Counted from the stretch's first letter, positions 8,214-31,641 are shown. The stretch is 64,000 bases of DNA from Candidatus Aldehydirespiratoraceae bacterium (GCA_965204595.1 CBDBEW010000005.1:742565-806564), one strand, 5' to 3'. Numbers and translations: made by a program. Notes: a model not told the origin generated them from the letters alone.

Positions 8214-9164
8214 TCAATTGCGGGCAGGTTGTTTGAACAGATTCTCGTAGTGCCAATCAATGTGTTCGTTGGCGGGTGGTGGGTAGCCGCGTTGGGGGGG
8301 CCGCATCGGCTCGCGTGACAGCGCGAGTAGTGGACGTGACGATGCTTCTTCGAACACGTTGAGGTGTTGACTCACCAGAATTTCGCGCTCGCCGCCGCGC
8401 ACGCCGAGTCCGAGCGCTCCACTATCGAAAAGTCGGTGATGTAATGCACACAGCGCCAAGCCGTTCTCTATCACGCTAGGGCCTTGTTTTGAATGCATGC
8501 GCAAGTGGGCGGCATCAACACTCACCGAACTTCCCCCCAAGAGTGCTCCAAAATCGCAAAATGAACACTTGTATTCGTAGGCCAACAGAATCTTTTCGCG
8601 GAACCGAGAATCACGTCGAGGCGTTTTGATCTCGGTTAGCAATAGCCCAAGTCTGCTCAGGACATCATCGTGTACCGACGCCGGGAACTCAGACTCGAGA
8701 AGAAAGTGAACGATTCGATCACGCTGCCTTGTGTCCTGTAGTGCTGCCACGAACTTGGCCGATACTCGCCCAGTCGCCTCTCGACGTAAGAAGCTGACGG
8801 TTTCACGTTTGGGTGCAGACATGGACGGTTTCAGAGGTTCCGACATCGCAAAGATGTCGGAACCGTTTTGATCCTTTACCTGCCAAAGCTCGGGCCTGCT
8901 ACCCAAGTAAACGAATGGGTGTTCGGGCTTCGGCGACGTATTCCCGACCCGGTGCTCTTCGAGCAGTCGTCTTAGGTCAGACTCAGCGTCTGCGAACCGG
9001 ACCTCAGGACTCTCTCCATTGCTCAGCCGCGCGATCAACCAAAGCAACAGCAGCGGCTTGTATGGCGCACGTTTGCCCATTGCGCTTCTGTGTTGCGGAA
9101 TCGATCGGATCACATCGATCCACGCTTCCGCACAGTTGGCATCGGCTGTCATGCCAAGCATCAT
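8214..9164 (-). CDS. HNH (HNH_2-type) endonuclease, ScoMcrA/SprMcrA-like putative phosphorothioate-DNA-binding type IV restriction enzyme, paralogue 1
   Basis: 316 aa. C-terminal CSFCDF....VDAAHLRMHSKQGPSVIENGLALCALHHRLFDSGALGL is a classic HNH_2 signature. The N-terminal GKRAPYKPLLLLWLIARL ... PEHPFVYLGS.PELWQV matches my recollection of the sulfur-binding-domain-HNH family (..HKPLLLL.., ..YPF..L..DG.W). Domain identity is from memory, not computed. Confidence 0.65.
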   Translation of the reverse strand: MMLGMTADANCAEAWIDVIRSIPQHRSAMGKRAPYKPLLLLWLIARLSNGESPEVRFADAESDLRRLLEEHRVGNTSPKPEHPFVYLGSRPELWQVKDQNGSDIFAMSEPLKPSMSAPKRETVSFLRREATGRVSAKFVAALQDTRQRDRIVHFLLESEFPASVHDDVLSRLGLLLTEIKTPRRDSRFREKILLAYEYKCSFCDFGALLGGSSVSVDAAHLRMHSKQGPSVIENGLALCALHHRLFDSGALGLGVRGGEREILVSQHLNVFEEASSRPLLALSREPMRPPQRGYPPPANEHIDWHYENLFKQPARN

Positions 9165-11554: not shown

Positions 11555-11850
11555 TAGTGGACAGTTGTCCGATTTGCTCGGAGAACACCCTCTCTTGTCG
11601 AGGTGCAGTTATTGAAGGAAGGCATGGTCTAAACCATCAAGAGATTTGAGCTTTATTGTGAATGTAGATGGGGGAGAGAGTTAAGCAGGGGTTGCGTCAC
11701 GGCGACATAGAGCCGTCGGTGTATTGGCATTGATGAACACAAGATGTTCGTGGCGAGCTGGTAGTTACTCGGACTCTCGAGGCTCTAGTGAGACTTCGAT
11801 AGAGCCTGCACTACAAGCGTTTGTGGACGCACCATTCGAAAAGACTGAAT

Positions 11851-12273
11851 TTAGATTGCGTGTGCTTGTTCGGACAACTCGAGTTTCAATGCAACGCCTC
11901 GTTCCTTCGCGTCTCTCATTACAGATACGAAATCACGCCACAGCTCGGTCTCGCGATCATTTGGATTCAACAGGACGTGATCAACCCGGACCTCTTTGTT
12001 CGACAGCAACACTGAGATCCCGCCGAAGTGGTCTGCGTCCGCGTGGGGCAGCAGTACAGTGTCGATCTGCATGATGCCCTGCGCGGCGAGGAATCGAGAA
12101 GGCGTGTCACCGCGGCACCCATCGATCGCGTACACAGTAGGTGGGTCTGCGACTACAGTCGCGGCACCATCAGCGCGGAGACTGTGTACCGCGCTTGAGA
12201 CGCGGAGGACTCCGGCGGCGGACTCGAAGCAGGGTCGCAGAAGAAGTTGCCGAGTCCTGTGGTGTCGTTGCAA
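11851..12273 (-). CDS. Short metallo-beta-lactamase-fold protein (possibly a fragment)
   Basis: ..YAIDGCRGDTPSRFLAAQGIMQIDTVLLPHADADHFGGISVLL contains the MBL H.D.DH.GG motif. At about 140 aa it is much shorter than typical MBL proteins. The start is uncertain, and the IS3 element sits about 80 bp upstream. Confidence 0.4.
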   Translation of the reverse strand: MQRHHRTRQLLLRPCFESAAGVLRVSSAVHSLRADGAATVVADPPTVYAIDGCRGDTPSRFLAAQGIMQIDTVLLPHADADHFGGISVLLSNKEVRVDHVLLNPNDRETELWRDFVSVMRDAKERGVALKLELSEQAHAI

Positions 12274-12355
12274 ACCCCGAAGGTGCTGTGGGCAGGCGAA
12301 ACGCTCACCGCTGGGCCGCTACCGGCCCTTGACACAGAGGGCTCCTCCATAATGA

Positions 12356-13681
12356 TGAATCACACCGGGTTTGGTAGAGACTTGGTTTTGTGTGTGTCTG
12401 TTGGTTTGTGGTTGGGTTTTGATTGTAGTGGGTGTTTTGTGTTCGGTGGGGGTGGTGTATCGGCCACCTAGGAGTTGGCTGTGGCTGCGTCGGTGGTTGT
12501 ACCAGTCGACGTATTCGAGGGTGGCGAACTCGACTTCGCGTAGGTTTTGCCAGGGTTCGTGGGGGTAGATGAGTTCTGATTTGTATAGGCCGTTGAAGCT
12601 TCAGGTCATGGCGTTGTCGTAGCTGTCGCCCACTGAGCCGACCGAGGCGACGATGATGTTGTTGTCGTCGAGTCTGGTGCTGTAGCGGATGGACAGGTAT
12701 TGCGATCCGCGGTCGCTGTGGTGAACCGCTCGGTCGGTTCTGCGGCCGTCGCGACGGCGTGTGGCGATGGCCATGGTCTGACGCGTCGAGGGCCAGTTTG
12801 GTGTGTGGTGTGTGTGATGCCCGCCAGCGGAGAACACGACGCGAGTAGGTGTCGATGACAAACGCCAGATACACCCAACCGCAGCCGGTTCGCACCCGAC
12901 TGAGATCGGCGAGCCGCAACCGGTTTGGGGCGTCGACACCGAAGTGGCGGTTCACCAGGTCGCCGGGTGTGTCGCTGCCGACGGGTGGCGTGGTGGTGAC
13001 CGGTTCTTTGCCTCGGCGGGTGCCGACTAGCCCCATCTTAGACATCAAAGGTTCAACGGTGCAATCCGCCACCACCACGCCGGCGACGCGGTTGAGGTGG
13101 TCCCACATTTTCGCGGCAACATAGGCACTGTAGTTGGCTTCATAAACTCGCGCGATCAACAAAGCGAGCTGCGCGTCGCGCAAAGCACACGCCGACGGCG
13201 CCCGCTTGGTGAACGCGTAGTAGGTGGACGGGGCGATCTGTCGCCGTGCTCTGTGAGCACCGCGCAAAACAGGATCGAAGTCGAACCGGTGCCGGTAAGC
13301 GTCGATGAACGACACTACAACCTTGACTGACCGTCGAGCTCCACCCCGACCAAAGCCGAAGCCGCGGCCAAAATCTCGTTCGCTCGGCGCAGCTCACGGT
13401 TCTCGCGTTCAAGATCCTTACCACGCTCACGCTCGACGCTAGTCACCCCCACACGCACCGTTGTCGATCTCAAAACGATGCACCCACTTGCGCACCGACT
13501 CCACAGACAGACCCAGCTTCAAAGCAACCGAACAAATCGCGTCGGCGAGATCCATAAAGCCTCTCATTATCAAGCACCATCCTCACCGCCCGCTCACAAA
13601 GCTCAGCCAGATATCTTCTGTTGTTTGTAATAACTCCATCCTCTCAAGGAAAAAAGTCTCCACCAAACCCGGGGTGATTCA
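12356..13681 (-). mobile_element. Degenerate IS3-family insertion sequence (1326 bp)
   Basis: Terminal inverted repeats TGAATCACACCGGGTTTGGTAGAGAC (12356-12381) and reverse complement TGAATCACCCCGGGTTTGGTGGAGAC (ending at 13681). OrfA-like ..AELCERAVRMVLDNERLYGS.. and OrfB-like ..WVYLAFVIDTYSRRV.., ..HHSDRGSQYLSIRY..SVGSVGDSYDNAMT*SFNGLYKSELI.. lie in several frames with an in-frame TGA. The transposase is therefore non-functional as sequenced. Confidence 0.85.
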
Positions 13682-14288: not shown

Positions 14289-15239
14289 TCAATGTCGTGC
14301 TGGGTGTTTGAAAAGGTTTTTGAAGTGCCAATCAATGTGCTTGGTGGCGGGGGGTGAATAGCCGCGCTGAGGTAGCCGCATGGGTTGGTTTGACAGCGCG
14401 AGAAGTGGACGCGAAGATGCTTGTTCAAAAATGTTTAGGTGTTGACTCACTAATATTTTGGGTCGATCCTCTTGTACTGTAAGCCCGATTGCGCCTCTGT
14501 CGAACAACTGATGATGTAACGCACATAGTGCTACGCCGTTTTCGATCACACTGGGGCCTTGCATTTCCCGTGTGCGAACGTGTGCTGCGGCTACACTCAC
14601 GGGACGGTCTCCTAGATAGGCTCCAAAGTCACAGAATGAACATCGGTATTCGTATGCCAGCAGAACGATTTTGTGAAACGATTCGTCTAACTCAAGCGAT
14701 TTCGTATCAGGTAGGCTGAGTCCAACTCTACCCAACAATTCTTCGTGTCTTGATTCTGGGAACTCCGACTCCAACAGGAAAGTGACGATTTGGTTACGTT
14801 GTATTGGGTCTAGGATCACTTCGGTGAACTCTTCAGAGACCCTGCCGGTTGCCTGTTGTCGTAAGAAGGTCACATTCTCACGTGCTGGGGTTGAGCTTGC
14901 AGAACTGAGAGGTGCTGACATCGCAAAGATGTTTCTCCCTCGAGTGTCTGTTACTTGCCAGAGCTTTGGTTTGCTTGCCAAGTAGACGAATGGATGCTCG
15001 GGCTTTGGACTTGAGTTTCCGACTTTAAATGTATTGAGCAAATCTCTTAGGTCAGTTTCGGCATCTTCAAACCGGAACTCAGGGTCGTGTCCATTGGTCA
15101 AACGACCGATCAACCACAACAGCAGTAGTAGTTTGTAAGGTGCGCGCTTGCCCGACGCATCCGTGTAAACCGTAATTGATCGGATCACGTCTATCCACAC
15201 GTCCGCACTGTTGGCATCGGCTGTCACGCCAATCATCAT
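14289..15239 (-). CDS. HNH (HNH_2-type) endonuclease, putative PT-DNA-binding type IV restriction enzyme, paralogue 2
   Basis: The track ORF (to 15575) has a 112-aa extension with no counterpart in paralogue 1. MMIGVTADANSADVWIDVIRSI.. at 15239 aligns with the paralogue 1 start MMLGMTADANCAEAWIDVIRSI... Same GKRAPYK(L/P)LLLLWLIGRL, PEHPFVYL and CSFCDF...AAHVR...ENGVALCALHHQLFDRGAIGL motifs. Confidence 0.65.
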   Translation of the reverse strand: MMIGVTADANSADVWIDVIRSITVYTDASGKRAPYKLLLLLWLIGRLTNGHDPEFRFEDAETDLRDLLNTFKVGNSSPKPEHPFVYLASKPKLWQVTDTRGRNIFAMSAPLSSASSTPARENVTFLRQQATGRVSEEFTEVILDPIQRNQIVTFLLESEFPESRHEELLGRVGLSLPDTKSLELDESFHKIVLLAYEYRCSFCDFGAYLGDRPVSVAAAHVRTREMQGPSVIENGVALCALHHQLFDRGAIGLTVQEDRPKILVSQHLNIFEQASSRPLLALSNQPMRLPQRGYSPPATKHIDWHFKNLFKHPARH

Positions 15240-18117: not shown

Positions 18118-18396
18118 ATGGCTGAAGTGCTCTCAGACGAGATTTGGACAATCGCGGCGGCGAAGGCGAGGCTGTCGGAGGTGCTACGGTTGGCTGAGGA
18201 GGAAGGTCCGCAGCGAATTGGGAAGCGTAAGCGGTTCGTGGTCGTGCCTGAGCACGCGTGGAACGCAAAGACGATCCGCCGCGAGCACATGGGGCAGTGG
18301 TTGGTGGAGAATATGCCGAGAAGTGTGGAGCTCGAGCTACCAGACCGCAACGAACCAGATCGGGAGACATCCTTTGTAGCCTTGGAAGATGTGTGA
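18118..18396 (+). CDS. Phd/YefM-type antitoxin (copy B)
   Basis: 92 aa, near-identical to 9619-9897. Stop TGA 18394-18396 overlaps the vapC GTG. Confidence 0.8.
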   Translation: MAEVLSDEIWTIAAAKARLSEVLRLAEEEGPQRIGKRKRFVVVPEHAWNAKTIRREHMGQWLVENMPRSVELELPDRNEPDRETSFVALEDV

Positions 18397-18845
18397 CTGG
18401 GTGGCTGGTCGACACTAATGTGGTGTCGGAGTTGGTTGCGCCGGCACCAGAGCCTCGTGTTGTCGCGTTTTTGCGATCCAGTGGTGACCTTTGGATGTCG
18501 GTGATCGTCATCCATGAACTGCACTGCGGTCTGAGGCAGCTTCCGGTAGGTCGTCGCCGTGACCAACTCACCGACACCTTGTCGGTGTTCGTTGGTGAGT
18601 ACGCCGGTCGTATTCTCCCGGTCAGTCTCAGCGTCGCCGACCGGGCCGCTGATCTGCGCGCCCAGGCACGCAGATCGGGTCGCACCGTGAACCTCGCTGA
18701 CGCTCTGATTGCAGGCACCGCCCTAGTTCACAGACTGGGGGTTGCGACTCGAAACACATCTGACTTTGAGGATCACGGCATTGCGCTTACCAACCCTTGG
18801 CATTCACCTCCAGAACTGACTGGCCACTCAGAAAGCGGGGTTTGA
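18393..18845 (+). CDS. vapC: VapC PIN-domain toxin (copy B, intact)
   Basis: GTG at 18393 (GTGA overlap). VTGWLVDTNVVSEL...IVIHELHCGL...NLADALIAGTALVHRLGVATRNTSDF shows the PIN acidic residues D..E..D..(N)..D. The track ORF start at 18258 is an upstream extension inside the antitoxin gene. Confidence 0.8.
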   Translation: MTGWLVDTNVVSELVAPAPEPRVVAFLRSSGDLWMSVIVIHELHCGLRQLPVGRRRDQLTDTLSVFVGEYAGRILPVSLSVADRAADLRAQARRSGRTVNLADALIAGTALVHRLGVATRNTSDFEDHGIALTNPWHSPPELTGHSESGV

Positions 18846-18896: not shown

Positions 18897-19844
18897 TCAC
18901 TGTCGAGCCGGCTGTTTGAATAGATTCTCGTAGTGCCAGTCAATGTGTTCTTTGGCGGGCGGCGAATAGCCGCGTAGAGGGGGGCGCATGGGTTCGCGTG
19001 ACAGCGCGAGCAGAGGGGGTGACGATGGTTCGTCGAAAACGTTCAGATGTTGGCTCACAAGAATCTCACGCTTGCCATCGGTCACGCCGAGACCGATGGC
19101 ACCACTGTCGAACAGTCGGTGATGGAATGTACATAGCGCGATACCGTTCTCGATCCTGCTTGGTCCCTGCTTGGCGTGCATGCGCAGGTGCGCTGCATCT
19201 ACCCCCACCGAACGCCCGCGCAGATAGGCACTGAAGTCACAGAATGAACACTTGTTTTCGTAGGCGAGCAGAACTTTCTCGCGAAAAGCTGGGTCGCGTC
19301 CGACCGTTTTGTTTTCAGTTAAACAGAGTCCAACGCTATTCAACACATCCTCATGTGTTGATTCTGGAAATTCTGCGTTCAAGAGGAAGCGAACAATCTC
19401 GTCACGTAGTATCGGATCCTTGAGTGCCGCTGCAAACTCGTTAGAAACTCGTCCATTTGCTTGCTCCCGCAAGAAGCTGACTGTCTCGCGCGCGGGAGTG
19501 GATCTCGAAGGATCGATTGGGCCTGACATTTTGAAAATGTCCTGTCCATCCTTGTCGGTCACTTGCCACAGTTCAGGTTTGCTACCGAGGTATACAAAAG
19601 GATGTTCAGGTCTAGGTTTTGCGCGTCCATATCCGAACTCGTCGAGCAGCTTCTTCAAGTTAGATTCGATATCCTTGTAGCGAAATTCAGGCTCGGCTCC
19701 ATTAGCCAATCTTCCGTCAGCCACAAAAGAAGCAACGGCTTATAGGGTGCGCGTTTGCCTGCTGAATCTTGATATCGGCGCATCGATTGGATGATGTTGT
19801 ATCTATTCGCTTACGTCGTTGGACTCGGCTTGCACGCCAATCAA
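18897..19844 (-). pseudogene. HNH endonuclease paralogue 3 (operon-linked), N-terminal region broken by two frameshifts
   Basis: Intact from GTG 19724 downstream (..GRLANGAEPEFRY...PEHPFVYLGSKPELWQV...CSFCDF...AAHLRMHAKQGPSRIENGIALCTFHHRLFDSGAIGL). Upstream, LIGVQAESNDVSE (frame 1) switches to NIIQSMRRYQDSAGKRAPYKPLLLLWL (frame 2) and back to frame 1. The TTG at 19844-19842 lies 1 nt after the SNF2 stop. Confidence 0.75.
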
Positions 19845-19845
19845 C

Positions 19846-21570
19846 TTACTCTCTAACGCGAGTGCTGCAAAGAATTCCCAACCAATTCATCAAGCGCCCA
19901 TTAGGTGCCAACACCCGAGATTGACCTAAGTAGGCTTTGGTAGAGTCTCCCGATGAGTGAACGCGACATCTCATTCTTTCTAATTTGATGTCGGGTTGTA
20001 AGAGTTTGCTGGCGAAATCGGGACGGTGCTGGAGCGCGTCGATGAGTTGCGCGAACGTTAACTCCTTGCGGTCGAGCAGGGGTTGAAGTCGGTCTTCTAC
20101 CGTATTTGTGCAGGTCAAGTTATAAATCGTGACGGGCTTGTGCTGCCCGATGCGCACGATGCGGTCTATCGCCTGAGAGTTGGTGGACGGATTCCACCAT
20201 CGGTTGATGAAAATTGCATGGTTCGCCTCGGTCAGAGTGAGGCCCTCAGACGCGACGCGCATGGATGCGAGCAGCACCGAACACTGGGCATCGGTTCGGA
20301 ACCTCCGGATGATCCGGCCGCGCTGATCGAGTTCAAGTTCGCCGGTAAGTAGAGCGGCATTGTCACCCATCTCGGCTCGCAACCGCCGCGCAAGTTCTCT
20401 CAGCGGACCGAGTGTGTAGGAGAACACAACGCACTTCTCGCCTCGATCAGTGATCTCTTTTAGCAACTCCACTGCGCGGTTGAGCTTTGAACTATCGCCC
20501 GTCGTCGGGTCCATATCGCAAATGGTGCGGAGATCGTTGAACAGTGCCAGCCACTCTCCTTGGCGCACTCCCTGTGAAGCTGACGAGTATGCCGATCGCT
20601 GCGCTGGTGAGAGCACCACCACTTCAGTTCGTTCGGTAACCGGCGGGAGTTCTGGAAGCACCGATTCCTTGAGGCGTCTCAGAATGTAGGGTCGCGCTCG
20701 AGCCCGCAAAATCTCAGGCCCAAGCCTCGCGTCGTCGACGGCGAAACGGATCGGCTCCAACAGGGACAGCAGCCCGGCCAGATCGTCAGCGTCGCGTTCG
20801 ACCGGTGTACCGGTTAGTGCCCAGAGTCTCTTCGTCTTGATTCGTCTCAGGCCTTTGTGGGCCAGCGAATCCGATTTGCGAAGTCGATGCGCCTCGTCAG
20901 CAACGATGACATCGGGAGGGTGTTGCAGAAGGCTGGACGGTGGGTCTCTGACATCCTCATAGCTCGCTATAAGCACGTGACATTGAGCAGCTGCCTGCTT
21001 CCAGTTCAATACACGGCCGCGCCCTGCACTACTTGTGTAGTGCCCGACGACGAGTTCAGGTGCCCATCGGCGCGCTTCCGCCTCCCAGTTCGCGCGTAGC
21101 GTCTTCGGAGCGACGACGAGGCAGAAACTGATCCTGCCAGCGCGGAACAACCGTCGAAGCGCCGCAATCACTTGGATCGTCTTGCCGAGTCCCATGTCAT
21201 CAGCGAGGATAGCGCAATCGCGACGCAACAGCCAAGCCACTCCTGTGCGCTGGAACGGGTAGAGTTGGTCGTTCACTCGACGCGGCAATAATAGCGGAAG
21301 CACCAAATCCAACGCACGATCGCGATCGCGCTCGTGACCTGGCCTTGGATCAAAAGACCACGAAAGTGTACATGGTGCAACTTGCTTGAGCTTCCAGACG
21401 ATACCAGCATCGAGCGAAAGCAATAGTTCTACAGCCCGAGCCAAACGCGCCGGAACTGTGTGATCGCTGCCATTCAACGCAACCTCAAGGATAGTCCGCT
21501 CACCCGCTAGCGTCAGTTTCGCCGAGAGCCCTTTCTTATCAAGCGCAAGCGACCATAGCGGGACACACAC
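19846..21570 (-). CDS. SNF2-family helicase
   Basis: 574 aa. LADDMGLGKT (motif I), VADEAHRLRK (DEAH), ALTGTP, and C-terminal helicase motifs LLASMRVASEGLTLTEANHAIFINRWWNPSTNSQAIDRIVRIGQ. Confidence 0.85.
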   Translation of the reverse strand: MCVPLWSLALDKKGLSAKLTLAGERTILEVALNGSDHTVPARLARAVELLLSLDAGIVWKLKQVAPCTLSWSFDPRPGHERDRDRALDLVLPLLLPRRVNDQLYPFQRTGVAWLLRRDCAILADDMGLGKTIQVIAALRRLFRAGRISFCLVVAPKTLRANWEAEARRWAPELVVGHYTSSAGRGRVLNWKQAAAQCHVLIASYEDVRDPPSSLLQHPPDVIVADEAHRLRKSDSLAHKGLRRIKTKRLWALTGTPVERDADDLAGLLSLLEPIRFAVDDARLGPEILRARARPYILRRLKESVLPELPPVTERTEVVVLSPAQRSAYSSASQGVRQGEWLALFNDLRTICDMDPTTGDSSKLNRAVELLKEITDRGEKCVVFSYTLGPLRELARRLRAEMGDNAALLTGELELDQRGRIIRRFRTDAQCSVLLASMRVASEGLTLTEANHAIFINRWWNPSTNSQAIDRIVRIGQHKPVTIYNLTCTNTVEDRLQPLLDRKELTFAQLIDALQHRPDFASKLLQPDIKLERMRCRVHSSGDSTKAYLGQSRVLAPNGRLMNWLGILCSTRVRE

Positions 21571-21618
21571 GGTAGAGATCCTGATGTCTGCTGGGGTTGG
21601 CTGTGCCCGCCAAACCAG

Positions 21619-23037
21619 TTACCGTTGCAACCCAGACACAATCTGTTGCCACATGTCGGTTGCTTCGTCCTCAGCGGACAACGGCAGATAACTCTTCCAT
21701 AGGTTGTGAAGGCTGTTTTCTTCTGAACCGGAGATCTCGTCGTCACTGAGTTGATCGAGGCCGATTTGCCAGCGGACGATCCGCTCGACAAGACGAAGTC
21801 TAGGATCTCGATTTTCGTTAGCAATTCGCCAACTACCAGTTTCCGACATCACGAGGAGAATGTGTCTCCAAGGTGGAGAGTGAGCATCCCAGGTGACTTG
21901 CGCTAGCGGTGACAGTACCAGCGAAGCGTCCGTTTGAGTAAAAGCGGCACCGTGGGCCATTGATCTCGCTTGCGCGTCGTCTAAGATTGCTCTGACTAGA
22001 TCAGCAAAGAGGATTTGAACTATCGGCCAAAATAGCACACAGTCTTGTGATGTTTCAGCGTTCCCCTCATCTTTCGGAGCTGGGTTGTGGATACGGCTCG
22101 TGCTTGGCTTATCGTACAAGACCGGTAATGCTTCCAATATCGCGTCCCAACAGAACATCAACTCCGCTTCCAATGCATCTATTTCTTCCTCAGGTGGTCG
22201 AAACTTCACGTACTCTTTGATCCGAGTCTTCTCAGAACCCCAACCTTCATTCCGCCTCTGCGCTGTTGACAACAAGCGGGTGTTGAGAACGTAGAGTATC
22301 TCGAGGGTTGTGAAATGATTAGAACCAGGAGAGAGGTTCTTGCCGCTGGACATCTTGACTTTGGACGAATCAAATTCCGAACCCGGCTCAGCGAAAAACG
22401 AGTGGTTCGAGATAAGTCGACGCGTTATTATCGCAATCGCATCATCTTCATCCATGACGATATTGTCGTATTGTGACATCGGTTTTGCGTATCGGTTGAG
22501 GTTCCCGAACAGACGGCGGTATCTCAATAAGAATTCGCTCTCGGATTCCATCTCCGTAGGTAATACACAAATCACACTGACTTCCTCGTTGCCAAAGTCC
22601 TGCGGTATGCTGAAATCTGTCTCCTTGTCAAGAAGGAGTCGGATTGCTGCTAGGCGATGCTGACCATCGAGAGCATAATAGTTCTGTTCACCATTGAAGG
22701 TCAGGATTCCGAACGATTCTGAAAGACGGCGATCATCTCTGAACAGTCTCAGTTCAGGGTTGTCCTCAAGACTGACTGGGCGCCATTGAGGTTCTCCATG
22801 CAACACTGCTACTACAATGGACGAGAAGAACCGATCGTCTTGCCTAACGAGGTATTTGGCGATCTCGTTCGTGGCGCGATTCTTGTTCAATTGGCGTTGA
22901 ATTGCATCAGATAGTTGAGTCGGACCGTGTATCTCTTCTGCGTACCGAATGTTCTGCGCTAATTCACGCATTGACATTCGCACCATAAAGTACTCCCAAC
23001 GTCCCATCTTTGCTTTGATTGCTGGATAGATTTGCAT
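21619..23037 (-). CDS. DGQHR-domain (DndB/ParB-like) protein
   Basis: 472 aa. ..QRQLNKNRATNEIAKYL.. and ..YYALDGQHRLAAIRLL.. are the diagnostic DGQHR/DndB-family motifs. Long unassigned C-terminal half. Confidence 0.8.
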   Translation of the reverse strand: MQIYPAIKAKMGRWEYFMVRMSMRELAQNIRYAEEIHGPTQLSDAIQRQLNKNRATNEIAKYLVRQDDRFFSSIVVAVLHGEPQWRPVSLEDNPELRLFRDDRRLSESFGILTFNGEQNYYALDGQHRLAAIRLLLDKETDFSIPQDFGNEEVSVICVLPTEMESESEFLLRYRRLFGNLNRYAKPMSQYDNIVMDEDDAIAIITRRLISNHSFFAEPGSEFDSSKVKMSSGKNLSPGSNHFTTLEILYVLNTRLLSTAQRRNEGWGSEKTRIKEYVKFRPPEEEIDALEAELMFCWDAILEALPVLYDKPSTSRIHNPAPKDEGNAETSQDCVLFWPIVQILFADLVRAILDDAQARSMAHGAAFTQTDASLVLSPLAQVTWDAHSPPWRHILLVMSETGSWRIANENRDPRLRLVERIVRWQIGLDQLSDDEISGSEENSLHNLWKSYLPLSAEDEATDMWQQIVSGLQR

Positions 23038-23052
23038 CGTATTTCCTCTTCT

Positions 23053-23538
23053 CTATTTGATTGATTGAGCTGGTCCAACTTTTCCGGTAAGCACCATGCC
23101 TCTGGGAACTGTTCGATTTGCAGGTGGATCGAAAGCTATTATTAGCTGGCGTTCGGCTTCCCTAAGCCATCTGTCAAGTTGGTGGATATTCCCTGACGGC
23201 ACTCGCGTGAATGCGAAACGTAGTGTGCCGAAGTTTGACTTACATTTTTGAACGATTGGATTGGTGTTATTTGAACTGTGTTGCTTGAATCGACGGTGAA
23301 GGTTCGAAGACTTGCCAACATAAATTACGGTGCTGATAAGCTCTGGAAGATTGTATTTGTTCGACAACTGGAAGCGATCAGTGACGAGCAGATAGATTCC
23401 AGAGTACTTCGGAATTGATTGCTGAAAGGTAATGTCGAGCTTCGTATAGTACCATTCTGTGCGTCTCAGTATCTCCATCAGTTGTAACCAAACATTTTGT
23501 CTGGTCGAAAGGCCATTTGACGACACAGCCATCAGCAC
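23053..23538 (-). CDS. GIY-YIG nuclease-domain protein
   Basis: 161 aa. SGIYLLV...VIYVGKSSNLHRRFKQH...EAERQLIIAFDPPAN follows the GIY-(x10-11)-YIG...R...H...E...N pattern. Confidence 0.75.
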   Translation of the reverse strand: MLMAVSSNGLSTRQNVWLQLMEILRRTEWYYTKLDITFQQSIPKYSGIYLLVTDRFQLSNKYNLPELISTVIYVGKSSNLHRRFKQHSSNNTNPIVQKCKSNFGTLRFAFTRVPSGNIHQLDRWLREAERQLIIAFDPPANRTVPRGMVLTGKVGPAQSIK

Positions 23539-24899
23539 TCCTCGGAATGGGGTCTCGCTAGGGCGCGCGTGCTCGTATCGCTCGTCGTTGGCACCCCGTC
23601 TTTGGCGGTGTTCTTCAACATGCCCTTTACCGGTTTGCCTAGTTTGACACCTCGGTAGAATCGTTCTGATGTAGTTGATGTAGGGATGAATGACTTTGGT
23701 GGAGTACGCTTTTGCGGATTTCTGCGATCTGGTGGAAGTTCAGGTTTCAAGACTATTGAGACATCACCATCCTCATGGAGAACTAGACAAGCAGTTTTGC
23801 CGTCACAGGCCGAGATAGCCTTCAGTGGAGAACTTACGCGTCCCATCTCTGGACCCGCCGGAGAGGTTGGGCGCCAGATGACGGAGACATCAGGGGATGG
23901 ATGGGGATTTCGCACCGCAGCAGTCGTCTTCTGACCCCATTCACATCCTAGCGACACTGCGATTTCGGCAGGAATGCCCCTGATGCTGTGTCCTCGTAGA
24001 TTTCGTTCATGCACTTCGAATATCCAGTATGGATCGCCGTGGATGTCTCGTCCGTCCACAACATCGTCAAGTTCGCCGATAACCACATCGTGGTGGGTGA
24101 CTTGACTGACCCAGCCATTTTCCAATCTGAAGGCGTTGGAAGCAATACACGCGCGAACGCTCGTCTCACTTACTCCGAACAGGCGAGGGAGCTCGTCGAG
24201 CAGTCGGTTGAGGCGAGTGCTGCCTCCATCCTCCACTATGCGTTGAACGATCTCCGCAGGGATTCCTTCGTATTCGTCCTCGATCCAGACTGCAAAGCCC
24301 CAGCGCGTCTTGTCTGCCCGTACCACGTCAGGTAACGCCCAGAAGCATGTTCCTACACGCTCAGGCGACAACCCGCTTAGCTCTGCGATCTCATCCTTTG
24401 TCGCTGGGCGGCCCAGTGCCTGCAGCGCGACTAACGTTCGCGTTTCGGCACTTCCGATGAAGTCGGCGGATCCCTCTTCAGGCCTTGCTAATCGTTCATC
24501 ACCAGTGCCTTGCTGGAGACTCAGGAGATTGCTAGCACTGGAAGAAATCGGCTCAACTTTGTTGTAAGCGAGCAACTCATCGAGCTCCTCGTCGAATGCT
24601 TCGCCAATGTCGTCGATGAACTTGGCATCGTTGAATTCGTCGTCGGCAAACACGTCGAACTCAACACCCCATTGAGTCACCCGTGCCAGGCTACGAAGTT
24701 TCGAATCTAATCTCGCTTCGCTGCCGAATTCGGAAATGTCCCAAGGAACGACATCCTCATTCGTAGAGTCAGAAAAATCGGCAGGGTTGCACTCATTATG
24801 CTGTTCGAGTTCAGCATCCCAAGCCAGGACGTGATCTGGATGGAGAACCGGGTCTCTTTCCTCGTAGTGGATCGGTTCTGTTGGGTTTATAGGGCGCAT
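23532..24899 (-). CDS. Hypothetical protein: acidic N-terminus, possible winged-helix segment
   Basis: 455 aa. Start overlaps the sspD stop by 13 nt and the stop overlaps the GIY-YIG start by 7 nt. The segment TLVALQALGRPATKDEIAELSGLSPERV looks like a wHTH (HARE-HTH-like), but this is a guess. No family recognised. Confidence 0.5.
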   Translation of the reverse strand: MRPINPTEPIHYEERDPVLHPDHVLAWDAELEQHNECNPADFSDSTNEDVVPWDISEFGSEARLDSKLRSLARVTQWGVEFDVFADDEFNDAKFIDDIGEAFDEELDELLAYNKVEPISSSASNLLSLQQGTGDERLARPEEGSADFIGSAETRTLVALQALGRPATKDEIAELSGLSPERVGTCFWALPDVVRADKTRWGFAVWIEDEYEGIPAEIVQRIVEDGGSTRLNRLLDELPRLFGVSETSVRACIASNAFRLENGWVSQVTHHDVVIGELDDVVDGRDIHGDPYWIFEVHERNLRGHSIRGIPAEIAVSLGCEWGQKTTAAVRNPHPSPDVSVIWRPTSPAGPEMGRVSSPLKAISACDGKTACLVLHEDGDVSIVLKPELPPDRRNPQKRTPPKSFIPTSTTSERFYRGVKLGKPVKGMLKNTAKDGVPTTSDTSTRALARPHSEEC

Positions 24900-25735
24900 A
24901 TGGTGCAGGGGAGGGTGTCGTCGTCTTCGTCTAGGACGTCGGCGAGGGCTTCTATTAAGGGGATATTCGATCGGGTTTTGGTGGCTCGGGCTAGGGATGC
25001 CTCGTGGCGTTCGAGTATCTGTTCGCGGCGAGATCGGAGTTGCAGCAGGGTCTCGCCACCGGACCAGGTGTACTGTCGGCCGCGCATGGCCTGGTCGCCG
25101 AAATCGGCGTCGCCGTCGACCCCGGCATCTTGTAGAACTTTCTGCTCAATCGCGACCGCCCGCTCGAACAATTCGGGATGACGCTCCGAAAGGCCGATCC
25201 ACTCGGCTTTGCGCTGGTAGAAGCAGAAATAGCAACCTGACCTTGTGCGCCACTCGTAATACGCGGGCAGCCCGATGCCGGCATCGTCGAGGATGCACAT
25301 GACACCGTCGTGGTCAATGCCGTCTTCAATGAACGGGAACCGAGTTTCGATGTTGGGCTTGGTCGATATGTAGCCCTTGCGGTTGGCCTCATCGGCGCGG
25401 ATCGCAACATAAGACACAGCAGGCGCGTCGCCTATCCACTCCTCAATCGGCTTGATCTTCATGTTCGTGGTACACCAGCGCATCTGCGGTGACGGCAGCG
25501 CGCCACGAAACACCTCGAACCAGTGATCGAAACCTCGTGAAGCGTTGAGCGTAGCGATGGGCTTGCCGAGAATCGCCTCCAGTCTCGTCAAATACTCGTA
25601 AGTCTCGGGCAACTCTGCGCCGGTGTCGCAGAAGAAATATTCCATCTGAGGAATCTCGCCACGCAGATACACAGCTAGGGCACTTGAATCCTTACCCCCA
25701 GAGATTCCGCAAATGTGCCGCAGTGCCTCAGCCAT
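24887..25735 (-). CDS. sspD: PAPS-reductase/DndC-like PP-loop ATP pyrophosphatase (SspD-type)
   Basis: 282 aa. N-terminal PP-loop GISGGKDSSALAVYL, then RWCTTNMKIKP and CYFCFYQ motifs of the PAPS-reductase/DndC superfamily. Position follows the DUF4007 and ATPase genes, as in SspABCD. Confidence 0.75.
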   Translation of the reverse strand: MAEALRHICGISGGKDSSALAVYLRGEIPQMEYFFCDTGAELPETYEYLTRLEAILGKPIATLNASRGFDHWFEVFRGALPSPQMRWCTTNMKIKPIEEWIGDAPAVSYVAIRADEANRKGYISTKPNIETRFPFIEDGIDHDGVMCILDDAGIGLPAYYEWRTRSGCYFCFYQRKAEWIGLSERHPELFERAVAIEQKVLQDAGVDGDADFGDQAMRGRQYTWSGGETLLQLRSRREQILERHEASLARATKTRSNIPLIEALADVLDEDDDTLPCTICAL

Positions 25736-28700
25736 GATGCGCTGACCTGCCGATCTCGACTACCGAACCCGCTTTGCTTGTGCAGGTCGCGCTGGTGATA
25801 GTTGCGGTGGCGTTTACACTCCCAACTTCCGGCACAGAGCCAGTTTGGGTTGCGCGTCCGGCCTCGGATACTAGTCCAATTTCGTCACCATTATCCCGCC
25901 GCTCAGTGACGCTTGGGCCAGAGTCGGTGCCCTCGACAGATTGGTTTGGCAGAAGGCGTTCGCACAGCAACGCCAGCAGAGCGTGCTCTGCTCGCTGAGA
26001 TGAACCCGTGAGGTCTGCCATATCCCCAAGAACACGGTCAAGTGATTTATTGAGATCGTCTCGCTGAGCTTGGTCTAAAGCAAGCAAGCGAATGTGTTCA
26101 CTACCATCGGGGCGGGTGACGGTAACCCGAAGAGCGTCAAAAGCACCCGGGCCGTGGGCGCGTCGCTCGGCGTGAAGAGCCAACAACCGTTGGAACGCGG
26201 CGACTTGCTCGGGCAATTCACGCTTGAACCTATGGTGGTCGTCATCACGCCACTCCGCAGGTGCCTTTTTTGCCACAACAGTAGCGATGCCCTTGATCCA
26301 GTCGGTGTCGCTGTCGACACTGTCGTTGGCGAGTGCGTACACGAACGCTTTCACATCTGGGTTGAGCACTTCGTCTGCTAGGGAAGCCGCTTGCCCACAA
26401 ACTGCCAGACGGTTCTTTTCAGCACTGGTATCAAGCAACAACTTTGTGAGGTTCCCCAATAGTGCCGAGTAGCAAACCTCAAGTTCGTTCAGTGCCACAC
26501 TCACCGATTCGGTAAACGAAGCAGCGGCAGGGTAGGATTTGTCGCTAGCCTCCACAGGCATGAAAGCGAGTGCTTCGGGCAATGCACGAAACAGCAAATC
26601 GTCTGGCTCTACCGCTCCAAGCAGGGCTGCGCGCACAAGCCTTGTTTGTTCGGAAAGGCTCGAAGTTCGCAACGTGTAGTTGTCGAGCACTCGAATTCGT
26701 GCCACGAGGTGTGAGACGATAGCAAGGACATTGGCCACTCTGCGCTTACCACGAACCGGGCGGACATCAAGCCGATTGGCGAGTTCACCGATAACCTCGC
26801 GGCGGGCACCTCTGGTATTGGCGAAATGCTTGATGTCGAAATGGCCGGGATTGCGGACCATGCGCTCGGAAATCTCAGTTGTGAGCAGGGGCTTGAAAGT
26901 GCCGTGCTCATAAAGAGCAACATTGTCGGAGGCCGCGAGCAGACCAGCGGTCACAAAAACGGGCACCACAGCCGCCTTCATCCCCACAGGCGGACACAAC
27001 AGCACAGCGTAAACATCGCGCAGGTTCATGCGGCGAACCCTCGCCCGGTCAAACGAATCTTGCATCAAGTCCCAAGCCACAGCCAGAGACTCGTCAGATG
27101 GCCGGCCAAACGCATCTGCACCCGCGCTTTCCTTCACGTGGATGTGTGTGCGCTTCAGGAACGCTCGGTACATTGCAACCTCAGGACCGTGACCCTCGAA
27201 ACCCAGGTCGGGTTGATCAGAATGTTCGATCATTCCCTTGAGCAGAAGACGGCGGGCTTTAGACCCCTGGGTTGTGAGGTCTGAGCGGTTGAGCATCTCG
27301 TTGCCAACAAGGGGAGTGTGTGGATAAACCTCATCACAAGCCTGCGAAAGAGCCGAACTACCCCTACCCGCCGCCAGTTCCACACCGTTTTCGCCTTTGA
27401 GCAGCACCCACCTACAAGTTGCTGAGTTGAAAGCGTCAGAAACGGCCCGGTCAAAGACAGCTCGCGCCGAGGCGAGCCGTTCACCTAGTTCGCTACGAGC
27501 TACCCGATCCTCGACTACAGAGGGGTCTTCAAGAGCGGCAAGTAGTGCATGAACTTCCCGGGCGGAGCCAGCGAACTCGCCAATGTTTGCGGGGAGAGCG
27601 ACCAAGACGGGTTTGGCACCGTTCCCCGAGGAATCCATCTGGGGTACCTGCGGCTCGTTGTCCACAGCGAGTAACACCGTGCCGTCGTAACAAGAGAACG
27701 CATCGGGGGGGGGGGGGGGGGGCATATTCCATTGCATTACTATCGAAGTAGCGCACAGAGAACATCCTGAGCGTGTCGTTTTGTGAACTGTGACGAGCGG
27801 CGACCAGCGGCCGAGGGGCATGCACAGAAGACAAAACTTGCACCAGCGGTTGTTGCTCGGCTTGTTTACGCGCCGCGTCCACGAGACGATTCAGGTCAAC
27901 ATCGGTGCCTTGCCAAACCCGGTACTCGTCTGCGAACTCCCGATAGGTGACTAAACCACCTGCCTCAAGTAAGGCGAGGACATCGTCTGTCTTGGTGTCG
28001 ACTAATCGCAGGAGTTCCCTTGAAGCTCTGAGGACACCAGAAGTTGCCACCAGATTGAGCAGTGCCACCGACTTGATGACACGCTGTTGGGAAGCCGTCA
28101 ACCCGTGAGTATCGCGTAGCCTGACAACAATCTCGATCCAACGGCTTATGTCACCACCCTTAGCTGAGGTGGTAAGCGAGAAAGCGTCGCTCGCAACAAA
28201 ATAATCGTACACGCCGTCAAGACCCAACGAAGGCAGCGAACCGGTTGGCGGAAAAGAGGTCTCAGCCAAGAAAGTTGCTGCGCTGTTCGGGGCTGACCCG
28301 GCGAGGAAAGAAAAGAGAGTGCGTTCCTGTTGTCCATAGCGACTGCACAACTCAGGTAAAACTAGAGCTGCGAGTGGGTGTAGCGGATAGTTAGCCGCCA
28401 CCACCTTCGCATCGGCGAGTTCAGCGATGCCAAGCGAGCGCATCTTTTCGGCCTCAGATTCCGCCCACCGTGAAATTTCGGCGCGCAGGTTCCGATCATG
28501 CACATCAAAGACTGTGCCAATCAAAGCGCGTGTCTGCGCGGGCGACTCCACGAAGGCAACATCTTCAAAGCGTCCCTGCACTTTAGCCCACTCACGGCGT
28601 TGGGTGCGAGTCGCCCCAACCAGGCAGTCATCAAACGACAAATGCTGAAGTGTCAGCAAAAAGATCGGCAGTCCAGAACCCTGACCAGCCTCCGCGAGTT

Positions 28701-29373
28701 GTTGCAGCAGATAGGGGTCTGTGTTGGTGGCACCATCTGCGATCGCTTCAAGATTCTTGCCAAACTCGTCGATGATTAGCAGAAGCGGAGCATCCTGTGC
28801 GAGACAGCGGGCAATGTCAAGTAACGCTGCAGGTGACGGCCCCGAACTTCGGGGGTCGCCCCTGCGGACATCTTCAAGAGCCCCCCGCAAGGCAGGTGCC
28901 GCCGCAAACTTAGACTTCGGTGGAATCTTCCCAAAACGCTGGCGCACAGCCGTTTCAAGGGCGCGAAGTATGGTGTGAGTCAACGGCTCACGTTGGGCGG
29001 TCACCAAACCCCGGTTGAAACAGGACTCGACAGTGGCGTGGCGAGAGTGGGCTTGTCGAGCCAAGTCTGTAACAGATGGTGACACCTCCGATAGCAACGA
29101 CAACGCTTTTGAGCGGGTTGCACCAGGTGGACCTAGCACGGCATCAAGGAGTAAGGCCAGTGAAGACTTTCCAGAACCGTATGGGCCTGTCAACGACCAA
29201 GCCCCGCCCGCCTCGTCTGTGGCTGCCGCGCCGATCACTCGCTCCACAACATCGAGGGTTCGAGCCGTGACCACATACCCCTCAAGAGGTTCGAGACGGG
29301 ATGCATCGCGTTCAAGGTTGGCCGACCTCGCATAACGGCCGACAACTGCGATGGAATCCGAAAGCATCGCCAT
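25728..29373 (-). CDS. sspC: Large P-loop ATPase (SspC-type), split into two ORFs by a frame error in a C18 tract
   Basis: ORF 29373-27529 carries Walker A TGPYGSGKSSLALLL and Walker B LLLIIDEFGKN. Its sense reading ends at ..NAMEYAPPPPP. ORF 27821-25728 makes sense only from PPPPPPDAFSCYDGTVLLAV.. onward. Both cross the same poly-C run, and 17 or 20 C would give one ~1215-aa protein. Confidence 0.7.
27705..27722. repeat. G18 homopolymer (C18 / poly-Pro on the coding strand) inside sspC
   Basis: Counted directly: G at 27705-27722. Confidence 0.95.
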
Positions 29374-29394
29374 CAGGTTACCCCAGACTCGCCA

Positions 29395-30471
29395 TCAGAC
29401 TGCCCCGAGCGAGAGCGCAGGTGGCTCGTTTAGCCTGCGCATAACCGAACCACGATCACGACCAAAACCGAGTGCCTCTATAACCTCGTCGTCCACCGCA
29501 CAGTCGCCTCGGCTACCGGCGAGCATTCCCTCTTGCACCGAATCGAAGTAGCGATCGAGCAGCTTTGGGGCGACCTCCGCCGGGTCTTTTGACCAAACAA
29601 GTTGTTTCACACCAGTCACTGTAGTCAAATTTAGTGCGCTCTCACAGCTAACACAAGACTCAAGTAGCACGCCCAATTCAGCTTCGCTCAACTTGAAGGC
29701 TCGACCGGGTGACCCGGGATCATTAGCTAACCGTCCGATGGTAACAGTACTGCTCGCCGTGTGGGTTCGAGCGATCCAATCGAGCACCGCATAGGTTGCG
29801 ATCTCTGCTGGCAGCGTAGGTTTGTTACCCAACGTGAAGCGGTGCCGACCAACCTCAGCGGAACTACTAATCAGGTTCAGTTCCCGCAACGGGCAGTTCA
29901 AAACGTCGTCTATAGCTGACCGAGTTGATGGGGGAGAGGGTGCATAAGTGCGCAGCAGGACTCCAAGGTCTTTTTTGATAGACGACTGACTCGGGGAGGG
30001 CCAAGGCGAAGTCCCGCCCACAACCCCGCCTAAAAGTGTGGAAATCGACATCTCAAGGTCTGCCTCTCTGAACTCAACTGCACTGAACTCGTTGAAGGCG
30101 AGCCACCAGACAGGTAAGCGTGAGCGAGGAGCGAGCAGTAGCCAATGCAGCAACCAGAGAGTCCCTGGGTCTTCCATGTATGGGTCCCACCCCGAATCAC
30201 CGAAAAGCGCATTGCCGAAGCGGGTAGGCACACAACCCCGAGACCTGCCGCTTGAGCGCGAATCCTCAACGATGACTTTGGCAGCGAGACCCCAAAAACG
30301 AATCGATCGGACCATGTTTTTGCCAACGCCCATAGTCACTGGTGCATCGGGTTGAGTGAAAATATAGGGGTCTTGCGCGCACGCCGCAAACGCTTTACGG
30401 AACCATCCATAACGTGGGTGGAAGGTCTCGTGGCGTGCGAATGTGGGCAAAGCAGCGTCTATCAAGCGCAT
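29395..30471 (-). CDS. sspB: DUF4007-family protein (SspB-type)
   Basis: 358 aa. N-terminal FARHETFHPRYGWFRKAF is the DUF4007 hallmark. The start codon directly abuts the stop of the cysteine desulfurase gene. Confidence 0.75.
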   Translation of the reverse strand: MRLIDAALPTFARHETFHPRYGWFRKAFAACAQDPYIFTQPDAPVTMGVGKNMVRSIRFWGLAAKVIVEDSRSSGRSRGCVPTRFGNALFGDSGWDPYMEDPGTLWLLHWLLLAPRSRLPVWWLAFNEFSAVEFREADLEMSISTLLGGVVGGTSPWPSPSQSSIKKDLGVLLRTYAPSPPSTRSAIDDVLNCPLRELNLISSSAEVGRHRFTLGNKPTLPAEIATYAVLDWIARTHTASSTVTIGRLANDPGSPGRAFKLSEAELGVLLESCVSCESALNLTTVTGVKQLVWSKDPAEVAPKLLDRYFDSVQEGMLAGSRGDCAVDDEVIEALGFGRDRGSVMRRLNEPPALSLGAV

Positions 30472-31641
30472 TCAGTGTGTCTCCTGAGTCATATCTCTAA
30501 CATAGCGAACGGCTGTGACAGTCGCTTCGACCGCAGCGTCAATCTCTTGTGCGGTTGTGAAACGGCCGAGGCTGAAACGGACCGTCTCAAAGGCAGCATC
30601 ACGGCTCAGACCCATCGCAATCAGAACCGCGGAGGGGTCGATAGAGCCGGCACTACAAGCACTACCTGTTGACACCGCCACAGGGTCCATCTGTGCAACC
30701 ACGGCCTCGGCAACAGCATCCACGAAACGGATGCTCGCAGTGTTGGGGAGTCGCCGCTCAACATCACCGTTCTCTGAGACATTGGGCAGTTTCGCCCTAA
30801 TCCCAGAGACTAGACGATCCCGCAGCCCGCCCACTCGCTGCGCCTCAACCACCCACTCACTCTCGGCGAGTTCTGCAGCCCTACCGAAACCAACGATCCC
30901 TGCGACATTTAACGACCCCGACCGCAGCCCTCGTTCCTGCCCACCCCCATGAATGATCGGCTGAAGTTGGCGCAAGCTACGGCGAGTTCCAATCAGCGCA
31001 CCAACCCCGCCCGGCCCACAAATCTTATGGCCACTAATCGACACAAGGTCGGCCCCAATCTGTTGCATGTCAAAAGGCAATCGCCCCACAAGTTGAGTGG
31101 CATCACAATGGAAGAGCGCACCGCAAGCATGAACTCGCTCTGCGATCGCAGCCACATCGTTGAGCACACCGGTCTCACTGTTTGCCGCCATCACCGACAC
31201 CAAACCCACATCGTCTTCGAGCAATGCTTCCACATCATTGGGATCAACAAAACCACCCTTAGTGGCTGGGATCACATCGGACTTAGCGATCCCGCGGTCA
31301 CTGAGCCAACTTGTTGTCTGATGCACCGAGGCGTGCTCCACAGCAGAGACGAGAATGCGCCGCCGATTGTTGCCACCACCCTCAACCACGCCACGAAGAG
31401 CCAGATTATTGGCTTCGGTCGCACCTGCAGTGAACACCACATCGCCACCTCGTCCGCCAACAAGGGCTGCCACCTGCTCACGAGCTTGCTCCACCGCAGC
31501 AGCTTGGAAGCGTCCGAAGCGATGGCTTGCCGAAGCGTTGCCCACCCCCTCGCTTAGCACAGGCAACATCGCTTCCACCACCCGCGTATCGACAGGTGCC
31601 GACCCGTTGTAGTCAAGATATATCTTCTGCCTGTCTTTCAC
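30472..31641 (-). CDS. sspA: Class V aminotransferase / cysteine desulfurase (SspA/DndA/IscS-type)
   Basis: 389 aa. IYLDYNGSAP, FTAGATEANN, HKICGPGGVGAL (PLP-lysine region) and active-site STGSACSAGS are typical of NifS/IscS. Confidence 0.85.
   Translation of the reverse strand: MKDRQKIYLDYNGSAPVDTRVVEAMLPVLSEGVGNASASHRFGRFQAAAVEQAREQVAALVGGRGGDVVFTAGATEANNLALRGVVEGGGNNRRRILVSAVEHASVHQTTSWLSDRGIAKSDVIPATKGGFVDPNDVEALLEDDVGLVSVMAANSETGVLNDVAAIAERVHACGALFHCDATQLVGRLPFDMQQIGADLVSISGHKICGPGGVGALIGTRRSLRQLQPIIHGGGQERGLRSGSLNVAGIVGFGRAAELAESEWVVEAQRVGGLRDRLVSGIRAKLPNVSENGDVERRLPNTASIRFVDAVAEAVVAQMDPVAVSTGSACSAGSIDPSAVLIAMGLSRDAAFETVRFSLGRFTTAQEIDAAVEATVTAVRYVRDMTQETH

Follow-up and report, generated by a model that had tools for sequence, protein, structure and literature searches.

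Analysis of a 64,000-nt stretch of DNA from Candidatus Aldehydirespiratoraceae bacterium (GCA_965204595.1 CBDBEW010000005.1:742565-806564; this whole stretch is called the window) was centered on the region 18897-31641. With moderate confidence, we read this locus as an Ssp phosphorothioate (PT) modification module joined, in the same direction of transcription, to a previously undescribed effector cassette, composed of a GIY-YIG nuclease, a DndB-like protein and an SNF2-family ATPase, and thus as a new variant of Ssp defence with a switch in sspC; a restriction role of the cassette is what we infer by analogy. An earlier annotation of this DNA (the original prediction) had listed nine minus-strand open reading frames (ORFs) in the region, and all of them were found at the coordinates it gave, in the order sspA, sspB, sspC (split), sspD, orf455, GIY-YIG, DGQHR/DndB-like, SNF2 and HNH. 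The features of the modification module and the tail that follows it, with E values in brackets, are:

30472..31641, minus strand: sspA, cysteine desulfurase (PADLOC SspA, 2.6e-127; Pfam Aminotran_5, 7e-71)
29395..30471, minus strand: sspB, DUF4007 protein (PADLOC SspB, 1.3e-98; Pfam DUF4007, 1.9e-79)
25728..29373, minus strand: sspC, Orc/Cdc6-BrxC-like ATPase in two frames, 27529-29373 and 25728-27821 (PADLOC SspC, PDLC02781)
27705..27722, no strand assigned: G18 homopolymer in sspC, candidate slipped-strand switch, out of frame (frame change at the tract)
24887..25735, minus strand: sspD, PAPS-reductase-like sulfurtransferase (PADLOC SspD, 2.1e-107)
23532..24899, minus strand: orf455, disordered acidic N-terminus and conserved core at about residues 150-385, predicted DNA-binding subunit or regulator (80-locus family, AlphaFold, Foldseek)
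23053..23538, minus strand: GIY-YIG nuclease, 161 amino acids (aa) (Pfam GIY-YIG, 1.3e-5)
21619..23037, minus strand: DndB-like DGQHR (ParB-superfamily) protein, 472 aa (Pfam DndB, 5e-30; TIGR03187)
19846..21570, minus strand: SNF2-family ATPase/translocase with a C-terminal read-through of about 47 aa (Pfam SNF2-rel_dom, 1.9e-44; Helicase_C, 2.4e-17)

PADLOC matches between 1e-98 and 1e-168, together with Pfam, identified the first four genes as SspABCD, as predicted, and Pfam and NCBIfam assigned the GIY-YIG, DndB/DGQHR, SNF2 and HNH_2 domains of the tail. The tight packing claimed for the nine genes holds at four junctions, since the abutment of sspA and sspB (30472/30471) and the overlaps of sspC/sspD (25728-25735), sspD/orf455 (24887-24899) and orf455/GIY-YIG (23532-23538) are all exact; small gaps, not overlaps, separate sspB from sspC (21 nt), GIY-YIG from the DndB-like gene (15 nt) and the latter from SNF2 (48 nt). 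The start proposed for HNH, 1 nt past the SNF2 stop, proved wrong, as the frame from the TTG at 19844 ends at a TAG after no more than 13 codons. A guanine-plus-cytosine (GC) content below that of sspABCD, claimed for the whole tail, was found for GIY-YIG (0.45), DndB (0.49), HNH (0.53) and orf455 (0.54), whereas SNF2, at 0.57, falls within the range of the ssp genes (0.56–0.58); flanking core genes lie at 0.61–0.66.

Inspection of the three cassette proteins revealed intact motifs in each. In the GIY-YIG protein, the catalytic set is present: G47, Y49, Y73, G75, R83, E129 and P138 are invariant among 45 family members, and N141 is conserved in 93%. The 472-aa protein carries the DGQHR motif at residues 124–128 and a DndB/DGQHR domain (PF14072, 105 bits versus 29.1; TIGR03187, 95.2 versus 58.85), but its score of 67.4 bits against the DndB equivalog TIGR03233 falls far below the cutoff of 328. 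It represents a distinct family (DndB-472), with 492 clusters at 50% identity among 1.84 billion (E ≤ 1e-30), roughly 80 of them full length; comparison of its profile with PDB sequences returned chance matches only. The SNF2 protein contains the motifs of an SNF2 ATPase (GLGKT127, DEAH225, TGTP253 and QAIDRIVRIGQ466), and PADLOC showed helicase-level similarity to PbeA (3.9e-14, compared with 3.9e-70 for ZorD). Its C-terminus runs about 47 codons (19846-19987) beyond the end common to all 17 relatives; since the extension is absent from these relatives, the original SNF2 stop has apparently been lost, and the junction between SNF2 and HNH looks decayed.

The distribution of the cassette was analyzed in a survey anchored on DndB-472, which comprised 82 metagenome loci from non-sponge habitats (80 from a scan and 2 from look-ups), the scan covering freshwater, marine, peat, soil and subsurface. 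SNF2 was present in 43 of the 46 loci with enough downstream sequence, and GIY-YIG was detected upstream by tblastn in 54 of 69, an underestimate because the protein is small and divergent. Of the loci covered on both sides, all 11 contained ssp genes, as did 29 of the 33 covered on one side; thus GIY-YIG, DGQHR and SNF2 (the trio) travel with sspBCD in almost every sufficiently flanked locus, and the co-occurrence with ssp that the original prediction called for exists outside this genome. The five-gene tail did not hold together as one module: only the trio forms a widely conserved Ssp-linked cassette, and among the DndB-472 loci orf455 occurred in only two and a relative of the HNH gene, which encodes a sulfur-binding-domain (SBD) HNH protein, in only one. 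Relative to sspBCD, the cassette lies either in tandem (sspD and then the cassette) or convergently, and locus L143 has a packed operon of sspC-sspD-orf219-GIY-DndB-SNF2 with overlapping stops and starts. No member of DndB-472 was found in viral contigs, and in the plasmid collection the DGQHR relatives were all distant (≤32% identity) and included a module of the pair type described below but not the trio.

The first gene of the cassette is variable. A conserved gene of about 250 aa precedes GIY-YIG in 34 non-sponge loci (L143:8875-9534, L083:8755-9549 and 32 others) and, outside sponge symbionts, fills the slot of orf455; this family matched nothing in Pfam or NCBIfam, and hhalign comparison with the orf455 profile showed no similarity. 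orf455 itself had no significant family match in Pfam, NCBIfam or PADLOC. Its AlphaFold model consists of a disordered N-terminal 150 residues and a core (residues 150–385; predicted local distance difference test score >90) that combines two winged helices with a beta domain. Foldseek returned tandem winged helix-turn-helix folds (E about 3e-3) and, for the beta domain and weakly (E 0.02–0.07), B3-type DNA-binding pseudobarrels including the N-domain of LlaJI.R1. Because of this winged-helix and B3-like core, the modeled protein is predicted to serve as a DNA-binding subunit or as a regulator rather than as an enzyme. The family comprised 138 database matches, mostly of about 700 aa with an N-terminal Sigma70_r4 helix-turn-helix (HTH); hhalign of the orf455 profile with one such protein, of 797 aa in L124, matched in the HTH only.

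A second survey, anchored on orf455 as the constant element and mapped by tblastn and ORF clustering, comprised 80 loci from species-representative genomes, nearly all of them sponge-associated metagenome-assembled genomes of many phyla. Upstream of orf455, sspABCD was found in about 50 loci and another module in 20; downstream, PbeA-PbeC-(DndE-like) was found in 58 and GIY-YIG-DndB-SNF2 in 18, the Pbe assignment in the sister loci being made by PADLOC (PbeA, 5.6e-150; PbeC, 3.7e-48). Hence orf455 is no part of a fixed Ssp tail, as had been supposed, but a lineage-restricted gene that also precedes PbeABCD. Wherever the contig extends far enough, ssp was found in each of the 18 trio loci, and the alternative upstream module never accompanied the trio, while it accompanied Pbe in 20 loci. 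That module (L060:922-8795 and 19 other loci) precedes orf455-Pbe and may be another sulfur-modification system; besides a cysteine desulfurase, it encodes a protein of 485 aa that has a PAPS-reductase-like motif, along with PDC-M33A/B-like proteins, DUF6339 and the PT-associated putative methyltransferase TIGR04096. In a further arrangement (L042:2029-16036 and 34 other loci), the order is sspABCD, an orf455-family gene, PbeA, PbeC and a gene for a protein of about 165 aa, so that Ssp is coupled through the orf455-family protein to the Pbe/CxC ABC ATPase system; the literature searched described Pbe beside dnd or methylases only.

These surveys bear on the possibility that the trio works as a defence system of its own, found beside ssp only through accumulation in defence islands. 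The island in the window is indeed mosaic: its GC content is below that of its flanks, and besides the three SBD-HNH genes it carries part of a transposase gene and a gene for an NYN protein. Nevertheless, the constancy of ssp in the covered loci of unrelated habitats, the overlap of start and stop codons with sspD or the gene after it, and the strict separation of the trio from the alternative modification module, with which Pbe does occur, make this explanation very improbable.

Analysis of sspC revealed no unbroken frame in the window; the frame switches exactly at the G18 tract (27705-27722), and the two halves match PDLC02781 at positions 2–535 (E = 1.2e-168) and 546–1104 (2e-141). Read on the coding strand, the tract is poly-C and specifies consecutive prolines, and a length of 17 or 20 would regain the frame, so that the window copy is off by one base; a tract-free homolog in L002 reads straight through. 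In a census of homopolymers of at least 9 nt in 81 related loci, sspC held 22 of the 38 runs, yet only 10.8% of the bases (binomial p = 2e-12). G/C tracts of 9–34 nt were found in sspC of the sponge-symbiont loci L004-L019, L027, L029, L035, L052 and L080, at no fewer than four distinct gene positions and both in and out of frame, in assemblies of different projects and assemblers; sspC of the non-sponge loci in the DndB-472 survey lacked such tracts. Among the 21 sspC tracts assessable for frame, 11 were frameshifted, 7 lay inside a contiguous match and 3 (all L015) had flanks in the same frame. Tract length differed despite near-identical flanks between L018 (G16) and L019 (G17), L006 (C12) and L011 (C9), and L004 (C10) and L008 (C13). 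A tract inside the ORF, enrichment among relatives, length differences and both frame states, features expected of a contingency gene, were found for sspC. As the tracts recur, are out of frame in about half of the cases and vary in length between near-identical genomes, sspC is a candidate phase-variable gene, and the sequences suggest a signature of slipped-strand phase variation, and hence phase-variable phosphorothioation. A second long homopolymer (G16, 1365-1380) precedes, by 9–24 nt, the start of an ORF on the minus strand (1-1356) that has a signal-peptide-like N-terminus and runs off the window; its expression may be under slippage control.

Several points weigh against our reading of the locus. 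On/off states at long homopolymers in metagenome assemblies, the window included, can be consensus errors. A scan of the window for promoters and terminators gave counts no higher than those in shuffled sequence. The AlphaFold model of DndB-472 had no significant PDB neighbor in Foldseek, SspE included (best hit, a ParB N-domain at E 0.8), so that the SspE analogy for the DGQHR protein is one of superfamily membership. In Dnd systems, DndB is a negative transcriptional regulator, not an effector (PMC4507180). The whole reading is computational, and the function of the cassette is a proposed one. Finally, with the sspC frameshift, a frameshift in HNH caused by a 1-nt deletion outside any long homopolymer, and the loss of the SNF2 stop, three genes carry lesions within 9 kb, and the window copy may be decaying. 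A dead remnant, with an sspC frameshift that reflects either an assembly error or an inactivating mutation now fixed, would account for these lesions and would be compatible with the other explanations; we nonetheless regard it as unlikely, because each of the four central tail ORFs has its full length and the motifs are intact, and because the sspC lesion lies exactly in the 18-nt tract, one slip from an open frame. In addition, more than 20 relatives carry sspC tracts at other sites, about half of them in frame, a pattern predicted by selection for switching and not by random decay.

The regulatory role of DndB raises the alternative that the trio is an accessory of modification, in which the DndB-like protein controls ssp transcription or PT density, while SNF2 remodels DNA and GIY-YIG nicks it, opening a single-strand target to SspBCD. 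A pair of a small GIY-YIG-like protein and a DndB of about 420 aa, with no SNF2, fits this alternative. This pair, related to the trio but simpler and present in cultured bacteria, stands directly after sspD in L001 (8298-9944), L024, L038, L067 and the Roseobacter litoralis plasmid pROLI83 (L164:8453-10233), and precedes dndBCDE in a Rhizobium plasmid (L165:7387-9263). A review by the Aravind group also proposed NTPase or nuclease roles of DndB in limiting PT. However, SspABCD alone suffices for PT in published systems, restriction modules usually combine a dedicated nuclease with an SNF2 motor, the cassette can also be convergent to sspBCD in an orientation of its own, as is typical of restriction partners, and in the orf455 loci it takes the slot of PbeABCD. 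On balance, we consider an accessory role improbable, albeit clearly less so than chance accumulation in an island, and retain the reading of the trio as an effector cassette.

The HNH gene had been predicted to be an effector of the tail. It belongs to a separate family (NCBIfam NF045808), of which the window contains three paralogs:

18897..19783, minus strand: SBD-HNH paralog 1, frameshifted (NF045808, 194.1 bits versus a cutoff of 180)
14289..15239, minus strand: SBD-HNH paralog 2, ORF open to 15575, homology from about 15239 (NF045808, 199.6 bits; 61% identical to paralog 1)
8214..9164, minus strand: SBD-HNH paralog 3, intact (NF045808, 210.4 bits; 71% identical to paralog 1)

The 1-nt deletion of paralog 1 was placed between 19718 and 19717 by comparison with paralog 3. 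Its genuine N-terminus, MRRYQDSAGKRAPYKPLLLLWL, starts at ATG 19783 in a frame other than that of the 18897-19724 ORF, and the N-terminal KPLLLLW (the KPxxLL motif of the sulfur-binding domain) is consequently out of frame; the HNH residues lie at AAH177, ENG192 and FHH200. The gene lies about 60 nt from the present SNF2 stop, a distance that would grow to about 200 nt if SNF2 ended where it usually does; translational coupling to SNF2 was rejected. The HNH paralogs share the KPxxLL...PF...L...W motif of EcoWI-type enzymes; searching the HNH protein against PDB sequences yielded no match. By sequence, it is an EcoWI-like PT-dependent (type IV-like) restriction endonuclease, separate from the conserved cassette. 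In the orf455 survey, SBD-HNH genes were found within 10 kb, on either strand, in 11 of 18 trio loci and 7 of 58 Pbe loci (Fisher p = 8e-5). Since they lie near the trio there, on either strand, and in a single DndB-472 locus, they appear to be lineage-specific neighbors, not a part of the cassette. Enzymes of the EcoWI/SprMcrA type, which are SBD-HNH proteins, cut PT-modified DNA and adjoin dnd clusters in fewer than 3.6% of cases (PMC7461809). The three paralogs resemble them in passing NF045808 and in carrying the motif and the HNH catalytic residues, but differ in standing as three copies beside an ssp operon within 11.5 kb, the copy nearest ssp being frameshifted. PT-dependent HNH enzymes next to a PT writer are contrary to the published expectation that such a neighborhood is rare.

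Further genes of the island, at 10931-13315 and 18258-18845, encode an NYN-domain protein and a truncated rve/HTH_21 transposase, and an ORF on the plus strand resembles, by eye only, a PIN (VapC-type) toxin. Sulfatase and SLH-domain genes flank it, consistent with a sponge-associated bacterium, and the window showed no tRNA or Rfam feature marking an integration site.

In the mechanism that we propose for the effector cassette, PT marks set by SspABCD would, together with the cassette, discriminate self from invader DNA. The DGQHR protein would act as a nucleotide-dependent sensor or switch by analogy with SspE, in which a ParB-like DUF262 NTPase senses PT and gates a fused nuclease; this analogy follows from the analyses by the Aravind group, which equate SspE with DndB. 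The GIY-YIG protein would nick or cleave DNA in trans, and the SNF2 motor would translocate along DNA, scanning it or driving the nuclease on unmarked invader DNA. The variable first gene, orf455 in sponge symbionts and the unrelated protein of about 250 aa elsewhere, may provide DNA binding and specificity or regulate the cassette. Changes in the length of the sspC tract would switch PT writing on and off, and the SBD-HNH paralogs probably restrict foreign DNA bearing other PT motifs. Many relatives carry an out-of-frame sspC beside an intact cassette, which, if real, would suggest that the effector tolerates unmarked self DNA; a PT-activated logic, as in SspE, would thus fit somewhat better than a PT-inhibited one, although weakly. 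A bolder version, to which we give clearly less credence than to the reading above, is a third, widespread Ssp partner in the form of a split, SspE-like and PT-activated effector that joins a DndB-type ParB NTPase, a GIY-YIG nuclease and an SNF2 translocase to a swappable DNA-binding first subunit, and which, along with a phase-variable sspC in sponge symbionts and an SBD-HNH layer directed against the PT motifs of neighbors, would amount to a community-level PT arms race.

Among sspBCD clusters, 84% were reported to have no known restriction partner (PMC8092258), and a conserved cassette that accompanies sspBCD in metagenomes of freshwater, marine, soil and host-associated origin would fill part of this gap. 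It forms a testable four-gene unit, and its separate sensor, nuclease and motor proteins would make the logic of PT sensing more tractable than in SspE with its fused domains. If sspC is switched by its homopolymer, this would, to our knowledge, be the first sign that a phosphorothioate epigenome can be phase-variable. Overall, the observation behind the original prediction was largely correct and its interpretation partly right, and the sspC switch and the three PT-dependent nucleases are additional points of interest. A new PT-coupled restriction module had been suggested; an atypical and seemingly undescribed Ssp partner is indeed present, but it has a three-gene core with a variable first gene, and its part in restriction would follow by analogy. 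A review of December 2025 lists SspBCDE and SspBCDFGH as the only Ssp partner types, and the Dnd/Ssp and BREX analyses of the Aravind group, which treat SspE as the Ssp equivalent of DndB (ParB superfamily), do not describe the cassette. No description of a GIY-YIG/DndB-472/SNF2 cassette was found in the literature, although most subscription papers lay outside the search and an earlier description is possible.

Comparison with known systems revealed partial likeness to each of them. SspE, by the accounts of Xiong et al. 2020 given in PMC8092258 and PMC9646914, is a single polypeptide of DUF262 (a DGQQR NTPase) and a DUF1524 nuclease. The locus shares with SspABCD-SspE the sspA-D genes and an effector that combines a ParB-superfamily DGQ(H/Q)R-type motif with a nuclease domain, but its sensor is of the DndB family (PF14072), its GIY-YIG nuclease is separate, and an SNF2 protein and a DNA-binding first gene are added. 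SspE and the tail showed no sequence or Foldseek match, and the tail proteins gave no PF03235, PF07510 or PADLOC SspE match at E ≤ 0.01, in line with the predicted dissimilarity to SspE. As in SspFGH, a multi-gene cassette adjoins sspBCD. In that system, SspF has a Walker A motif only and SspH an FtsK/SpoIIIE-like C-terminus (PMC8092258); the tail has GIY-YIG, DGQHR and SNF2 domains and nothing FtsK-like. With neither a Walker-A SspF nor such an SspH C-terminus in the tail, identity with SspFGH was rejected, so that the predicted distinction stands as far as published domain features go, the comparison being with descriptions and not with the SspF, SspG and SspH sequences.

DndFGH, in which DndF is kinase-like, DndG has a triple winged helix-turn-helix and DndH exceeds 1500 aa, was likewise rejected, as the tail contains no PADLOC DndF, DndG or DndH match and no protein of DndH size. 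The PbeABCD/CxC-ABC-ATPase system (PMC6459918, with a later re-annotation in PMC10853773) includes PbeA, in which an HKD nuclease is joined to a superfamily 2 (SF2) helicase, PbeC, a CxC ABC ATPase, and PbeD, a DndE-like protein. The cassette shares with it the slot after orf455, occupied by Pbe in the 58 related loci, and the combination of a helicase with a nuclease; an HKD-SF2 PbeA, a CxC PbeC and a DndE-like PbeD are all missing from the window, and identity was rejected. The DGQHR protein shares the Pfam family and the DGQHR motif with DndB of DndABCDE systems, but is about 100 aa longer and is linked to ssp, SNF2 and GIY-YIG instead of dndCDE. In phasevarions, phase-variable restriction-modification genes are switched by homopolymers within their ORFs. 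As in phasevarions, a homopolymer lies in an ORF of the modification pathway, its length varies among close relatives and both frames are seen; the candidate switch described here differs in residing not in a methyltransferase or specificity gene but in the sspC ATPase of a phosphorothioation system, in uncultured sponge symbionts.

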